A stretch of 38,456 nt of DNA from a phage. The position numbers and the translations under genes are program-made. This document shows positions 430-5,860 of the stretch, one piece after another. The notes under the pieces were generated by a model. The model made no database searches. It was not told the DNA's origin and saw only the letters and a list, made by a program, of their open reading frames with translations. Within the stretch, counting starts at the first letter, position 1. Each line of letters starts with the position of its first letter. Location of the stretch: the NCBI GenBank assembly GCA_030819375.1, contig GCA_030819375.1_4699.1; one strand, written 5' to 3'.

Positions 430-552
430 AGCAATCAGTCGGGAGCGACATTAAATACTTAGGGTGAATGATGGAGAGCGTCCTTAACTATCCGGCCTAG
501 CTACTGAAGCCGTTAAACAATGTTAACTAGTGGAAGATGGCGCAAGCATAAC

Positions 553-626
553 CTGCCACGATAAACCAAGGTTAGCGCAACGCTCTTTAACAACTTGCTT
601 AGTGTAACCTATGTATGCCGTGGTTA
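553..626 (+). promoter_or_regulatory. Putative RNase III-type processing hairpin in early transcript (copy 1)
   Basis: Imperfect long inverted repeat (ccacg...cgtgg, aggtta...taacct) enclosing CGCTCTTTAACAA (581-593); same motif recurs at 1208-1220. Confidence 0.3.
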
Positions 627-652
627 ATTACTTATTGAATGAGGAATTAACT

Positions 653-772
653 ATGAGTTTAGCAACGATGAGTTACGAAGAAATGTATGAAGTTTACTTC
701 AACTCCGCTGAGGGAGGCGAGGAAGTCTTATCTTATGCTGAGTTTGTGGAGGTTTATCATGATTCTGAATAA
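653..772 (+). CDS. Small acidic hypothetical early protein (39 aa), below ORF-track cutoff
   Basis: ATG 653 preceded by GAGGA with 7-nt spacing; ORF MSLATMSYEEMYEVYFNSAEGGEEVLSYAEFVEVYHDSE; first ORF after the processing-site-like hairpin. Confidence 0.4.
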   Translation: MSLATMSYEEMYEVYFNSAEGGEEVLSYAEFVEVYHDSE

Positions 773-914
773 CCGCGAATTATCCGTTCTCTTCACCTTG
801 TTATGCTATATGATACATAAAGGTGAGCTGCTCACTAATGATGAGCAAGCCTTGTATGCCCGATTCATCAATGACGGTTGGGTAGATAGCGTAAACAAGA
901 AGGAGAAAGCATAA
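759..914 (+). CDS. Hypothetical early protein (ORF track 687..914; start 759 preferred)
   Basis: Track ORF frame; ATG 759 has GGAGG 7 nt upstream, ATG 687 has no RBS; hydrophobic N-terminal segment. Confidence 0.45.
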   Translation: MILNNRELSVLFTLLCYMIHKGELLTNDEQALYARFINDGWVDSVNKKEKA

Positions 915-1138
915 TGTATCAGCATGAAGTGTTCTTCGAATCAGCTAGTGAAGCTCTCCGCTTCCATGATGATATGATGCAAGCTGGCGTAGGTGTTGAT
1001 GTGTATCACTATTTGATAGATTACGACACTGAATATCACCGAGTTACCTTAGTATCTGAGTATGACAACCAAGTCATTACTGAGTATCTAGGTAGTGAAG
1101 ATTACGATTACGATGAAGTAATCACGACAAATCTCTAA
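914..1138 (+). CDS. Hypothetical early protein (74 aa), acidic
   Basis: ATG overlaps upstream stop (taATG); GGAG RBS; ORF track. Confidence 0.55.
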   Translation: MYQHEVFFESASEALRFHDDMMQAGVGVDVYHYLIDYDTEYHRVTLVSEYDNQVITEYLGSEDYDYDEVITTNL

Positions 1139-1149
1139 ATTAACTATTG

Positions 1150-1262
1150 ATAACCACGGCATACAAGGTTACATTAAGCATCAAGACGGCGACGTCTTTA
1201 AACATCCCGCTCTTTAACAATAAGATTTGTGTCTTGATAGGTTAAACCTAGGAGATTCTCTT
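1150..1262 (+). promoter_or_regulatory. Putative RNase III-type processing site upstream of ocr (copy 2)
   Basis: CGCTCTTTAACAA at 1208-1220 followed by hairpin aggagattctcttgagtctcct; resembles the region upstream of T7 gene 0.3. Confidence 0.3.
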
Positions 1263-1308
1263 GAGTCTCCTATAGTGTAACCTAACTAACTAAATGAGGA
1301 TTAATAAC

Positions 1309-1662
1309 ATGGCTATGTCTAATATGACTTACTCTCAGGTTTACAACACCGCTCATGCTGCATTAGTTGAACGCGTATGGGATGATGCCATTGATTGTAT
1401 TGATAACGCACATGATGCAATCCATGAGGTAGCTGATAGTGCTGTACCAATCTACTATGCTGATATTTTCTCAGTGATGGCGAGTGATGGTATTGACCAC
1501 TTCTTCGAGGATTCTGGATTGATGCCAGACACTAAAGACGTAACGGTTGTCTTACAAGCCCGTATTTACGAACAGCTTACAATTGATTTGTGGGAACGTG
1601 TTCAAGATATGATTGACGCATACATAGACTCAGCCGAGGACTCAGAAGAAGAGGAAGAATAA
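1309..1662 (+). CDS. ocr: Ocr-like DNA-mimic anti-restriction protein (T7 gp0.3 homolog), 117 aa
   Basis: MAMSNMTY...[19 protein letters not shown]...[12 protein letters not shown]...[15 protein letters not shown], acidic C-terminus; near-collinear with T7 Ocr as recalled; GAGGA RBS before ATG 1309 (track start 1294 is probably too early). Confidence 0.9.
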
Positions 1663-1768
1663 GGATGGAAAAGTTATATAACTTCACCTTTTCCGACGGT
1701 GTAACCCTGAAGTGTTCCTTGCGATTTGCACAAATACGTGAGGAAGTCCTAGGAACTACATACAAACT

Positions 1769-1790
1769 ATTTAGCTGACACTATAAGAGA
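1769..1790 (+). promoter_or_regulatory. Variant phage-RNAP promoter-like sequence (ATTTAGCTGACACTATAAGAG)
   Basis: Matches phage promoter consensus except A instead of G at the predicted +1. Confidence 0.4.
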
Positions 1791-1858
1791 AGGCTTAACA
1801 GGGCGTTACTTGTTAGCGCCCGATTAAGTTTATCTCAATAAACCAAATAGGCGACTAT

Positions 1859-2743
1859 ATGACTACTGAAAACATCCTCGTTTCTGTTCGTGAAGCTGCA
1901 ACCGCTGAAATCAAGCAACACTTAGACAATATCGGCACGTCTTACCTCCGTGTCGGCGCTTGTCTGAATGAGTTGCGCGGTGACTTTGAAGGTCAAAAAG
2001 ACTTTTTGGCTTATGTAGAAGCTGAGTTCGGCATCAAGAAAGCACAATGCTACAAGCTGATGAGTGTAGCCCGTGTCTTTGAAGGAGACGAACGCTTTAA
2101 AGGTGTGGCTATGCGTGTAATGTTGGCGCTTGTTCCTTTCGCTGATGAAAATATAATCATGGAGAAGGCCGCAGAACTTGCCGCAGATGGTAAGCTTGAC
2201 ACTAATGCCGTAAACGCCCTGATTGAGCCTAAGAAAGAGCCAAAATCCGAAACGGTACAACCCAAGGCTGAGCCTGTAAAACCGCAGGAGAACGCTACTG
2301 AGGCCGCAGAAACGCAGGAAACGCAAGCGCCGCAGGCAGTACCGCCAATGCGTGAGCCTGACACCGACGAATCTGCACCGTGGGAAGATGAAAGCAAGCC
2401 GGAAGCGCCTAAGGCCGCGCCACTGGATAACACGGCTAACACCGAGAATGCCGCTATGGCTGGCCTGTTGGCACAAATTAAGGCACTGACTGAGCAATTA
2501 CAGGCGGCTAACGATCGCATCGCTGCCCTAACTAGTGCACGTGAAAGCAAGAAGGCAGCCGCACCTATACTTCCTCAGTTCAAATCTAAATGTTTCTATG
2601 CTCGCTTAGGTTTGAGTGCGGAGGAGGCAGAGAAGAAAACAGCAGTAAACAAGGCTCGCCGCGAACTGGTTAAATTGGGGTATGGTGAAGGTCATGAGGC
2701 ATGGGCTTTAATCTCTGAGGCAGTAGAAGAATTAACTAAGTAA
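1859..2743 (+). CDS. Hypothetical early protein (294 aa) with a P/E/A/K/Q-rich low-complexity linker; in the slot T7 uses for gp0.7 but no kinase motifs seen
   Basis: Long ORF in the early region; structured N- and C-terminal parts flank an acidic/proline-rich central region. Confidence 0.7.
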   Translation: MTTENILVSVREAATAEIKQHLDNIGTSYLRVGACLNELRGDFEGQKDFLAYVEAEFGIKKAQCYKLMSVARVFEGDERFKGVAMRVMLALVPFADENIIMEKAAELAADGKLDTNAVNALIEPKKEPKSETVQPKAEPVKPQENATEAAETQETQAPQAVPPMREPDTDESAPWEDESKPEAPKAAPLDNTANTENAAMAGLLAQIKALTEQLQAANDRIAALTSARESKKAAAPILPQFKSKCFYARLGLSAEEAEKKTAVNKARRELVKLGYGEGHEAWALISEAVEELTK

Positions 2744-2800
2744 TCTTATCGGTGGCATCTTCTTAGGTGTCACCTATTAAGGTTTCTTTTAGGAGGACAG

Positions 2801-3176
2801 ATGAGACTTAACATAGAAAGATTTGGTTATAAGGTAGGCTCACATGGAACTATCTTAGGTAAAACAGGAAGACCATTAAGGCAGCATTCTAATGGTGTAG
2901 GTTATTTAGTTGTTCCACTCTTGATAGAAGGCAGAAGGTAGAAATTATGTTAACCACAAAGATGGTAATAAATGGAATAATAAGGCTACTAATCTAGCGT
3001 GGTGTACTAATCAAGAGAATGGCCTACATCATAGGAAAGGTTACATACCAAACATCCAAGAAATAATAGCCAATGCAATAGAGTTACATATGCAAGGTTA
3101 CTCCTATAAAGAGATAGATGCTCGATTAGGGATTTATAAAGGCGCTGCTAGGCGATACATTAATGGCATAAGATGA
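2801..3176 (+). pseudogene. Degraded HNH homing endonuclease (frameshift plus internal deletion)
   Basis: Frame 1 (2801-2941) encodes an N-terminal GY..G...GYLVV motif then stops; the +1 frame (2928-3176) encodes VNHKDGNKWNNKATNLAWCTNQENGLH plus a C-terminal HTH-like tail; the HRLVA..FIPNP segment present in the intact paralog 9556..10035 is missing. Confidence 0.55.
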
Positions 3177-3232
3177 TTATTTGAGAGTATCTAACATTAG
3201 GTACTCAATTAATAACCAATGGAGCCTGATTT

Positions 3233-5860
3233 ATGAAAGATTTATACGAAACCCAACTCATGTTAGAGGAAGAGATGTTCTCTGGTGGTATCCGTCGCTT
3301 TGAAGCGGACCAACAACGCCAGATTGCATCCGGTAATGAATCAGACACGGCATGGAATCGCCGCCTATTGTCTGAGTTAATCGCACCTATGGCTGAAGGT
3401 ATTCAGGCATACAAGGAAGAGTATGAAGGTAAAAGAGGCCGTGCACCGCGTGCATTAGCTTTCATTAACTGCGTAGAAAACGAAGTGGCAGCATATATCA
3501 CGATGAAAATCGTTATGGATATGCTGAACACGGATGTAACCTTGCAGGCTATAGCCATGAATGTAGCTGACCGCATTGAGGACCAAGTACGTTTTAGCAA
3601 GCTGGAAGGTCACGCCGCCAAATACTTTGAGAAAGTTAAGAAGTCACTTAAGGCAAGTAAGACTAAATCATATCGCCATGCGCACAACGTAGCGGTCGTG
3701 GCTGAGAAGTCAGTAGCTGACCGTGACGCTGATTTCTCTCGCTGGGAGGCGTGGCCTAAAGATACCTTGCTACAAATCGGGATGACCTTGCTAGAAATAC
3801 TGGAAAATAGTGTATTCTTCAATGGTCAGCCTGTCTTTCTTCGCACCTTGCGCACTAATGGTGGCAAGCATGGCGTTTACTACTTACAGACTAGCGAACA
3901 CGTGGGTGAATGGATAACTGCATTTAAAGAGCACGTAGCTCAGCTGAGCCCAGCCTATGCGCCTTGCGTGATTCCTCCTCGTCCGTGGGTGTCACCTTTT
4001 AATGGCGGTTTTCACACTGAGAAGGTGGCAAGCCGTATTCGTCTGGTTAAAGGTAACCGCGAGCACGTCCGCAAGCTGACCAAAAAGCAAATGCCAGCGG
4101 TTTACAAGGCTGTTAACGCCTTACAAGCTACTAAGTGGCAGGTTAACAAGGAAGTATTGCAGGTAGTAGAAGATGTTATTCGTCTAGACCTCGGTTATGG
4201 TGTACCTTCCTTTAAGCCGCTCATTGACCGCGAGAACAAACCAGCTAACCCTGTTCCTCTTGAGTTCCAGCACCTGCGAGGCCGTGAACTTAAAGAGATG
4301 CTAACGCCGGAACAATGGCAAGCCTTCATCCACTGGAAAGGTGAATGTACCAAGCTGTATGCCGCTGAAACTAAGCGCGGCAGCAAGTCGGCGGCAACCT
4401 TTCGCATGGTCGGGCAGGCCCGTAAATACAGCCAGTTTGACGCAATATACTTCGTGTATGCACTGGACAGCCGCTCACGCGTTTATGCGCAATCTAGCAC
4501 ACTCTCACCGCAATCAAATGACTTAGGCAAGGCTTTACTACGCTTTACCGAAGGGCAAACCATAAACAGCACTGAGGCGCTTAAGTGGTTTTTGGTGAAC
4601 GGGGCAAATAACTGGGGCTGGGATAAGAAAACTTTTGACGTGCGTACCGCTAACGTGCTGGATGGCGAATTTCAAGACATGTGCCGCGACATTGCAGCCG
4701 ACCCGCTGACCTTCACTCAATGGGTAAATGCTGATTCCCCTTATGGCTTCCTTGCATGGTGCTTTGAATATGCGCGTTATCTGGATGCACTGGACGAAGG
4801 AACGCAAGACCAATTCATGACGCACCTACCCGTCCATCAAGATGGGAGTTGCTCTGGTATCCAGCACTATAGCGCGATGTTACGCGATGAAGTAGGTGCG
4901 AAAGCAGTAAACCTTAAGCCTTCTGACTCCCCTCAAGATATTTATGGCGCGGTTGCGCAGGTTGTTATCCAGAAGAATTACGCCTACATGAATGCAGACG
5001 ATGCAGTGACTTTCACATCCGGAAGCGTCACACTTGCAGGTGCAGAACTGCGTAGCATGGCTAGTGTGTGGGATATGATAGGAATCACTCGCGGCCTGAC
5101 CAAAAAGCCCGTAATGACCCTACCTTATGGCAGCGCACGTCTAACCTGCCGTGAGTCAGTGATTGATTATATCGTTGATTTAGAAGAAAAAGAGGCCCAA
5201 CGAGCTATTGCGGAAGGGCGTACCGCCAATCCTGTACATCCTTTTGATAATGGCCGTAAGGACAGCCTGACACCTGGCGCAGCTTATAACTATATGACAG
5301 CTTTAATCTGGCCTTCTATTTCGGAAGTGGTTAAAGCTCCTATAGTGGCAATGAAAATGATTCGTCAGCTTGCCCGTTTCGCAGCTAAAAGGAATGTAGG
5401 CTTAGAGTATACCTTGCCTACTGGCTTCATCTTGCAACAAAAGATAATGGCGACAGATATGCTCCGCGTATCTACTTGCTTGATGGGAGAAATCAAGATG
5501 AGTCTACAGATTGAAACGGACGTAGTGGATGAAACGGCTATGATGGGCGCTGCTGCTCCTAACTTTGTGCATGGTCATGATGCCAGCCACCTTATCTTAA
5601 CAGTCTGCGACCTTGTTGATAAAGGGATTACATCTATCGCAGTCATTCATGATTCTTTCGGTACTCACGCAGGTCGTACAGCCGATCTACGTGATAGTCT
5701 AAGGGCAGAAATGGTGAAGATGTATCAAGGCCGTAATGCATTGCAAAGCCTGCTAGATGAGCACGAAGAACGCTGGTTAGTTGATACTGGAATCCAAGTG
5801 CCAGAGCAAGGAGAGTTTGACCTTAACGAAATCTTAGTATCTGACTATTGCTTCGCATAA
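3233..5860 (+). CDS. Single-subunit DNA-dependent RNA polymerase (T7 gene 1 family), 875 aa
   Basis: Length and C-terminal ...[13 protein letters not shown] resemble the T7 RNAP terminus (recalled ...NLRDILESDFAFA); conserved palm motifs; matching promoters throughout the window. Confidence 0.97.

Follow-up and report, generated by a model that had tools for sequence, protein, structure and literature searches.

Predicted helix-turn-helix and J-like domains in a core early protein of an SP6-like phage

How do phages of the SP6 branch manage without the gp0.7 kinase of T7? The question is raised by contig GCA_030819375.1_4699.1 of the phage assembly GCA_030819375.1 (38,456 nucleotides (nt); this whole stretch is called the window below), in which a gene for a 294-amino-acid (294-aa) protein (1859-2743) occupies the slot of T7 gp0.7, a kinase and host-shutoff protein, as the last early gene before that of the phage RNA polymerase (RNAP). 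A previous analysis of the letters alone (the sequence-only reading) had put forward this protein, together with three small early ones, as a class of candidate host-takeover or anti-defence factors. All four open reading frames (ORFs) were recovered with the same boundaries on the + strand, which also carries the other ORFs upstream of the RNAP gene and the domains and motifs described below. The 294-aa protein is very probably modular, consisting of a DUF3102/KorB-like helix-turn-helix (HTH) domain, an acidic linker, a long helix and a J-like domain devoid of the His-Pro-Asp (HPD) tripeptide.

A conserved early gene in the position of T7 gp0.7

When positions 500-3300 were compared by megablast with GenBank phages, 96 records matched. 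As the closest genomes were those of Vectrevirus (K1E, K1-5, ACG-C91 and AAPEc6; 85-92% identity), the source phage is placed by sequence in the SP6/K1E branch of Autographiviridae (Molineuxvirinae; Vectrevirus), outside T7 proper, and the label "T7-like" used in the sequence-only reading has to be replaced. The early genes follow in the order 39-aa, 51-aa and 74-aa ORFs, Ocr, a 37-aa ORF, the 294-aa ORF, an insertion and RNAP.

The 294-aa protein matches phrog_4571 (1.1e-130), and its homologues are annotated as SP6 gp7, K1E gp6 or K1-5 gp6, always "hypothetical"; one genome paper lists a homologue as "Unknown". By tblastn, homologues were found in 214 phage records, each with at least 80% coverage and with identity down to ~31%, from phages of Escherichia, Klebsiella, Salmonella, Proteus, Erwinia, Pectobacterium, Vibrio, Pseudomonas, Aeromonas, and Marinomonas. 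They are full-length and syntenic across phages of Molineuxvirinae, Colwellvirinae, and Gajwadongvirus. Wherever the neighbour was seen, the family gene precedes that for the RNAP, with at most one small gene in between (ACG-C91, KMB14, Proteus PM93, Klebsiella Kp7, Erwinia Era103, Vibrio R25D, Pseudomonas Alpheus, Marinomonas CPP1m, ECBP5, PP99, and one metagenomic contig; at locus L012 the neighbouring gene fell outside the stretch examined). When 1.84 billion cluster representatives were searched exhaustively with phmmer, only 139 clusters (50% identity) were obtained, nearly all with the same layout of N-terminal domain, linker, and C-terminal domain, and a profile search with a 77-sequence alignment of a 5.8-billion-protein collection returned at least five proteins. 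Judged by this distribution, the 294-aa protein is the product of a core early gene of SP6-like phages.

In many members of the family, the DUF3102 domain is preceded by 70-150 additional, poorly conserved residues. Examples of this N-terminal extension are found in L010 (609-1643), L011 (70-1104), and L012 (139-1125), and in many representatives from P0129 to P0236. The Vectrevirus and SP6 proteins have no such extension, and the HTH domain of the 294-aa protein begins near residue 1. In an alignment of 11 diverse phage homologues, the N- and C-terminal blocks are conserved and the linker is not; the invariant residues are L238-P-Q-F241, L250-G251, G274, Y275, G276, and H279.

The sequence-only reading had assigned the gene to the gp0.7 slot and had seen no kinase motifs in its product. 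Both points held. The gene for the 875-aa RNAP (3233-5860) is the next one, relatives show the same order, and no kinase was found by Pfam, NCBIfam, or PHROGs, or among the fold matches. A kinase identity is thus ruled out by the three family databases. The likeness to T7 gp0.7 is one of position, with no similarity in sequence or fold and no kinase domain, and the 294-aa protein may likewise act on host DNA or transcription. A candidate from the literature on DnaJ and Autographiviridae, JSS1_004, proved to be a homologue of the gp0.7 kinase from outside the 294-aa family.

Predicted domains of the 294-aa protein

Direct sequence searches against Pfam, NCBIfam, and PDB returned only beta-lactamase and low-complexity matches with E > 0.02, and a PDB search with the 11-sequence family profile gave only coiled-coil noise. 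An AlphaFold2 model was built from a 69-sequence alignment. Its predicted local distance difference test (pLDDT) was 73.5 overall, 80-93 for residues 11-120, below 50 for residues 125-191, and ~90 for residues 241-294; prediction from the single sequence gave a pLDDT of 48. The two structured domains and the linker between them, described already by the sequence-only reading, are thus reproduced in the model.

The N-terminal domain (residues 1-124; 1859-2230) is, by distant homology and by the model, a divergent DUF3102 domain with a KorB/ParB-type HTH fold. Scanned singly, 66 of 129 family members match Pfam DUF3102 (PF11300) at E <= 0.05, the best with 5.4e-12. Among the close homologues three of 11 match weakly (best E 0.015), and the 294-aa protein itself fails the curated cut-off of 24.4 bits, giving no match. 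Its homology to accepted DUF3102 members is found by direct search and by fold. In particular, phmmer with the 294-aa protein reaches P0247, P0251, P0256, P0257, and P0259 with E-values, computed against the whole 1.84-billion library, of 8e-5 to 8e-4 (singly, 7.6e-5 for P0247, 2.5e-4 for P0251, and 4.6e-4 for P0256). These are its weakest phmmer matches and cover only the N-terminal domain; the same five proteins score 22.6-46.5 bits on DUF3102, four of them above the cut-off. Foldseek against the viral models of BFVD links the protein to a Marinomonas phage homologue (1e-12) and to DUF3102 proteins (3.8e-4). In addition, UniRef names two homologues from Vibrio phages "DUF3102 domain-containing protein".

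The top structural matches of this domain are the transcriptional repressor KorB and the DNA-binding domains of VirB and ParB, Foldseek matches to PDB being not significant. The modelled domain has the HTH DNA-binding fold of the ParB/KorB group, and the conserved basic residues K61, K66, R79, and R86 cluster on or just after the putative recognition helix. A ParBc (CTP-binding) domain was found neither in the 294-aa protein by Pfam nor among the top families of the 129 members. Because it has no CTPase domain, the 294-aa protein stands outside the strict ParB/KorB family. It further differs from KorB, ParB, SopB, and VirB in being acidic, in belonging to DUF3102 by sequence, and in having a coiled-coil-like helix instead of the C-terminal dimerisation domain of ParB and KorB.

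DUF3102 proteins of phages and plasmids, linked to the 294-aa protein by phmmer and by fold similarity in BFVD, carry different partner domains. In P0251, a metagenomic protein of 365 aa, DUF3102 is fused to a phage-type Dam DNA adenine methyltransferase (PF05869, 8.8e-18), and this fusion supports a DNA-related role for DUF3102. We know of no function assigned to this domain.

The C-terminal domain (residues ~239-294; 2573-2740) is predicted to be a three-helix J-like domain. The invariant L-P-Q-F stands before it (residues 238-241; 2570-2581; LP[QH]F in most family representatives), and the loop G274-Y-G-E-G-H279 (2678-2695), with G274, Y275, G276, and H279 invariant among diverse homologues, occupies the position of the HPD of J domains. 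The consensus of the domain, ...LPQF.S....RLGL....A.....V.KA[FY]R.L.K..., reads as a J domain. At E <= 0.05 the Pfam DnaJ profile (PF00226) matches 18 of 129 family members, over profile positions 1-53 of 63. The HPD is kept only in two distant clusters, P0248 and P0250, and P0250, which carries HPDK, scores 43.7 bits (cut-off 27.8). An intermediate is P0149, an NPD variant that scores 26 bits on DnaJ and aligns over its full length to the 294-aa protein with E 1e-39. Its segment "LHYNPDTNPEAF" ("...HYNPDTNPEAF") is aligned opposite "KLGYG--EGHEAW", with P-D deleted in the 294-aa protein, and the GYGxGH loop is two residues shorter than the HPD loop. The remaining clades show TPE, KPE, TAA and similar at this position.

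When the strict GYGxGH clade was compared by hhalign with 11 canonical J domains, in a reference alignment written out by hand, they aligned in register over helices I-III (probability 88%, E 3e-6). With the strict C-domain profile, DnaJ was retrieved from PDB, also in register, at E 0.85, which is not significant. The model shows the antiparallel hairpin of helices II and III typical of J domains, and helix II has kept its basic residues (K265, R267, R268, and K272). The tripeptide between helices II and III is missing, helix IV is missing as well, and the score is below the curated cut-off of 27.8 bits, so the 294-aa protein lies outside the strict J-domain family. Taken together, the sequences and the model indicate that the C-terminal domain is J-like, having apparently been derived from true J domains with the loss of HPD and helix IV and the gain of the GYGxGH loop.

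With J-domain proteins, the C-terminal domain shares the arrangement of helices I-II-III and the signature Y.xLGL...A[YF]R.L.K, and distant members of the family, with HPD present, score above the Pfam DnaJ threshold. Among phages, Rki of RB43 is a J-domain protein. The Gly/Phe and zinc-finger client-binding regions of J-domain proteins are replaced here by the fusion to HTH. The joining of a J domain to DNA binding is known from E. coli CbpA and the polyomavirus large T antigen, both with a functional HPD. The 294-aa protein shares with them the logic of a DNA-binding part plus a J-type module; the DNA-binding parts are unrelated, and no homology is implied beyond the J fold. The loss of HPD is common to it and to mitochondrial J-like Tim16/Pam16, to which it shows no detectable sequence relationship and from which it differs in organism, partners, and domain context. 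By analogy, then, the 294-aa protein resembles several known kinds at once, with a CbpA/large T-like architecture and a Tim16-like loss of HPD. In the literature, we found no paper describing the architecture of the family, with HTH and a degenerate J-like domain.

The two domains are separated by an acidic disordered linker (residues 125-191; 2231-2431; pLDDT < 50) and a long single helix. The linker has an isoelectric point (pI) of 4.37, is rich in P, E, A, K, T, and Q, and cannot be aligned across the family. It contains D170-E-S-A-P-W-E-D-E178 (2366-2392), and the motif [DE][DE]x[AVP]-P-[FW]-[DE] is present in 43 of 123 family clusters (e.g. APFDTG, VPWDDD, and DEDDIPFD). Across the linkers, P[WF] occurs 47 times vs 10 expected from composition, and 47% of the W/F residues are preceded by P. 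The C-terminal tip of bacterial single-stranded DNA-binding protein (SSB) is acidic DDDIPF, and the acidic P-[FW]-[DE] motif resembles this tip. The helix (residues 194-231; 2438-2551, predicted) is a probable coiled-coil oligomerisation element according to the model.

Possible action on DNA and on a host partner

The presence of HTH and J-like domains in one protein favours a takeover or regulatory role, exerted on DNA and on a conserved host partner. Our tentative proposal, for which the chances are somewhat below even, is that the 294-aa protein is an oligomeric DNA-associated adaptor that serves host takeover by binding DnaK, or some other conserved hub of the host, with no canonical activation of ATPase. 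It would be made early in infection as an oligomer (dimer). The HTH domain would put it on DNA, either the host nucleoid or the phage genome; for DNA binding by itself we consider the chances evenly balanced. The J-like domain, possibly together with the acidic motif, would bind a host factor that is conserved among gamma-proteobacteria. The likeliest partner would be the DnaK (Hsp70) system, the most economical candidate given the J-domain ancestry of the C-terminal domain and its retained basic helix II; that DnaK is the actual partner remains doubtful. With HPD absent, the J-like domain would bind DnaK without triggering ATP hydrolysis, so the chaperone would be diverted or blocked rather than activated. 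The 294-aa protein would thereby act as a host-takeover or regulatory factor that functionally fills the gp0.7 slot of T7.

A more specific version is improbable in our view. It is a DNA-tethered pseudo-co-chaperone replacing gp0.7 and gp2 of T7, in which the GYGxGH domain would lock DnaK and the SSB-tip-like motif would hijack SSB-interacting genome-maintenance proteins. If true, host takeover by these phages would follow a novel, conserved mode that hits two universal bacterial hubs at once.

Phages of the SP6, K1E, and K1-5 type are widely used in phage therapy and are the source of SP6 RNA polymerase, and their early regions are almost unannotated. The analysis turns a "hypothetical protein" of these phages into a defined target, with Y275, G276, H279, LPQF, and W175 as the residues to mutate. 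A J-like domain that engaged DnaK but did not activate it would amount to a compact natural modulator of bacterial Hsp70, and the adaptor, if real, would show how SP6-branch phages manage without the T7 kinase.

The expression context of the gene bears on these roles. A site resembling promoters of the phage RNAP (TATTTAGCTGACACTATAAGAGAAGGC / ATTTAGCTGACACTATAAGAG; 1764-1790, + strand), absent from the sequence-only reading, lies ~70-83 nt before the gene. It is a variant of the consensus shared by the phage promoters of the window, ATTTAC(T/C)GGACACTATAGAAG. With at most one mismatch allowed, this pattern matches 16 times in the window vs 3.2 expected, and 11 of the matches are consensus sites on the + strand. 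The site before the 294-aa gene is conserved in ACG-C91, KMB14, and SP6. Since it adjoins the gene, we infer that the 294-aa and RNAP genes may be readable both by the host RNAP, from early promoters, and by the phage enzyme.

In ACG-C91 and KMB14, the promoter-like site, TGACACTATAAGAG, is located ~326 nt upstream of the gp6/gp7-like gene (L001 2533-2858; L002 1858-2185), from which it is separated by a small gene (K1-5 protein 5, 61-75 aa). In the window (1764-1858) a gene like K1-5 protein 5 is missing, and the gap between the site and the gene is 83 nt vs ~326 nt.

Between the promoter-like site and the start of the 294-aa gene there is a G+C-rich hairpin with an 8-pair stem (1801-1821, + strand). 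Similar hairpins, identified by eye in the 110 nt that precede the homologous gene at loci L001-L013, are present in most lineages (phages of Escherichia, Salmonella, Proteus, Klebsiella, Pseudomonas, and Aeromonas, and ECBP5-like phages). They may serve as attenuators or as sites of RNase III-type processing. Within the hairpin of SP6 stands CTATAGTGTCA, which is the promoter core in reverse complement.

Several observations weigh against the proposed adaptor. First, the 294-aa protein itself has no Pfam match at E <= 1, and both domain assignments rest on transitive homology, on the one profile-profile comparison at 88%, with its hand-written reference, and on predicted structure. The N-terminal domain is acidic (pI 4.81, net charge ~-6), which is atypical for a DNA-binding domain. 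As to the C-terminal domain, the protein stops at residue 294 right after helix III, leaving no helix IV, and the family-wide loss of HPD argues against canonical activity as an Hsp70 co-chaperone; the J-like fold may be a mere scaffold for another partner. Sigma-70-like sites do lie upstream of the 294-aa gene (357-429 and 1147-1175), a point in favour of the proposal, but sites of this kind are not enriched over shuffled sequences (5 found vs 7.5 expected). Finally, no functional study and no essentiality or interaction data for SP6 gp7 or K1E gp6 were found in the searchable literature.

The structural matches to KorB and to the DNA-binding domains of VirB and ParB are also what a KorB-like transcription regulator would give. 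Such a protein would repress transcription by the host RNAP, at host genes or early phage promoters, or tune its own phage promoter, the one before its own and the RNAP genes, and its J-like domain would be a passive helical module for interaction or oligomerisation, unconnected with Hsp70. This fits the loss of HPD in almost all family members and the promoter-like site and hairpin directly upstream of the gene. It also fits the position of T7 gp0.7, whose C-terminal half is, as reported for a gp0.7 homologue (PMC12345140), a DNA-binding host-shutoff domain. The C-terminal domain with its GYGxGH loop is, however, the most conserved part of the protein, which would be unexpected for a passive module, and distant members retain a functional-looking J domain with HPD. 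Moreover, no candidate operator was found, and the acidity of the N-terminal domain tells against this reading too. We consider a KorB-like regulator unlikely.

An array of CTTAG (often CCTTAG or CTTAGT), all on the same strand, occupies positions 41-170 at the left end of the window, with ten copies at 46-165 spaced by 10-13 bp. In total, there are 15 copies in the first 520 nt vs 0.9 per kb elsewhere in the window. Further copies are found up to position 460, and the complement CTAAG does not occur in the first 520 nt. Presumably, the array is the counterpart of the short left-end repeats of T7. As ParB, SopB, and KorB, the best fold matches of the N-terminal domain, generally bind arrays of short repeats, the ~10 same-strand copies of CTTAG could be targets of a ParB-like factor acting on the phage genome. 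In this scheme, the HTH would bind phage repeats such as this array and the J-like domain would recruit or remodel partners, with genome entry, initiation of replication, processing of concatemers, or protection of the incoming end as possible tasks. T7 has comparable left-end repeats and is not known to have a homologue of the protein, so that the array does not require it; again, the N-terminal domain is acidic. We regard this role as highly improbable, and the adaptor binding DnaK or another host hub as the preferred, if tentative, reading.

Small early genes and other features of the locus

Three small genes precede Ocr. The first encodes a very acidic SP6 gp2-like protein of 39 aa (653-772; phrog_2061, 1.3e-9), with pI 4.05, 10 D/E, and zero K/R. 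Its longest frame opens at 611, and GAGGA, a Shine-Dalgarno sequence, lies 8 nt before the ATG at 653. By tblastn, it is found in 28 phage records (Escherichia, Salmonella, and Citrobacter). The second encodes a K1-5 gp1-like protein of 51 aa (759-914; phrog_9275, 6.6e-26). Here the longest frame opens at 687, the ATG at 759 is preceded by the Shine-Dalgarno sequence GGAGG, and the homologues and phrog_9275 align from residue 1 of the 759 start. The 102 tblastn records of this protein are all from enterobacterial SP6-like phages, and it has no match in Pfam, NCBIfam, PDB or PADLOC. The third product is the very acidic K1E/K1-5 gp2 of 74 aa (914-1138; phrog_6403, 7.9e-29; pI 4.05, 17 D/E, and 2 K/R), with 63 tblastn records from Vectrevirus and a few Klebsiella and Lelliottia phages.

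The 74-aa protein matched designer pentatricopeptide-repeat (PPR) proteins in PDB with whole-sequence E-values down to 2.5e-11. A PPR identity was rejected: the weak scores of residues 12-33 against the individual repeats sum over the repetitive target, with no single stretch being significant, so the matches are an artefact. No meaningful match was found for any of the three small proteins in Pfam, NCBIfam, PADLOC or solved structures.

Given the PHROG matches and the tblastn homologues (28, 102, and 63 records, and 214 for the 294-aa protein), the four ORFs are not chance ORFs. The three small ones are genuine accessory early genes, a pattern that fits their patchy, genus-level distribution within enterobacterial SP6-like phages. 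The acidity of the 39-aa and 74-aa proteins is compatible, as a conjecture only, with an Ocr-like decoy or mimic role.

The next gene encodes Ocr, a DNA mimic (~1309-1662; PF08684, 1.7e-41; phrog_2568, 6.3e-49). In a search of known anti-defence and defence families in Pfam, PHROGs, and PADLOC, which include no dedicated anti-defence library, it was the only protein of the region to match. The four proteins have zero matches in PADLOC, and their PHROG matches are all of "unknown function", in line with the sequence-only reading, which had listed these genes as lacking an assigned function. Clear homology to a characterised housekeeping function was looked for, and none was found.

Anti-defence is a natural alternative for the 294-aa protein, as genes that are early and beside Ocr are a known source of such functions. 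It could bind a defence nuclease or sensor through its acidic motif or J-like domain, with the acidic disordered region as a possible decoy, or block a chaperone-dependent defence. In addition, its positional counterpart, T7 gp0.7, is reported to disarm defences by phosphorylation (PMC13645617, PMC12345140). Set against this, nothing was found that links the protein to a defence system, it has no resemblance to PADLOC families, and PHROGs assign it no function. Full-length, syntenic conservation across phages of very different hosts, which differ in their defence repertoires, is the pattern of a core function and makes the 294-aa protein unlike accessory anti-defence cargo. An anti-defence role of this protein is thus improbable.

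The grouping of all four proteins into one host-takeover or anti-defence class therefore stands only in part. Takeover is favoured for the 294-aa core protein, and neither the single class nor anti-defence is upheld for it. The accessory distribution of the small proteins agrees with their candidacy, although nothing was found to indicate what they do. A screen for anti-defence functions is likelier to pay off among the small acidic accessory genes than for the core protein.

A fifth small gene, absent from the list of the sequence-only reading, is located between Ocr and the 294-aa gene. Its 37-aa product (1665-1778) is SP6 gp4-like, matching phrog_11746 over the full length (2.2e-28), and its annotation in relatives points to similarity with SP6 protein 4.

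In the gap that separates Ocr from the 74-aa gene, at 1262-1285, the minus strand has a phage promoter core with one mismatch (TTACACTATAGGAG), adjoining a short inverted repeat (AGGAGA...TCTCCT). Phages of this group would rarely be expected to have a promoter pointing leftward, and the site may belong to a hairpin or have no function.

Several labels in related records find no support in our analysis. The "protein kinase" of the KMB14 record is a mis-annotation, the labelled gene being that of Ocr, and for the labels "endolysin" and "andolysin" on the gp6/gp7-like protein (P433.1 and vB_EcoP_B) no support was found. Three GenBank entries (OR424384.1, MN384978.1, and NC_047806.1) are apparently mis-annotated.

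Downstream of the 294-aa gene, similarity to other Vectrevirus genomes ends at ~2789-2800. The following ~440 bp (2790-3232), up to the RNAP gene, are absent from these genomes. This insertion encodes the frameshifted remnant of an HNH homing endonuclease, one reading frame giving MRLNIERFGYKVGSHG...EGRR, then a stop, and the next frame NYVNHKDGNKWNNKATNLAWCTNQENG...YSYKEIDARLGIYKGAARRYINGIR, also ending in a stop. At the DNA level, it is weakly similar to HNH genes of Aeromonas and Staphylococcus phages.

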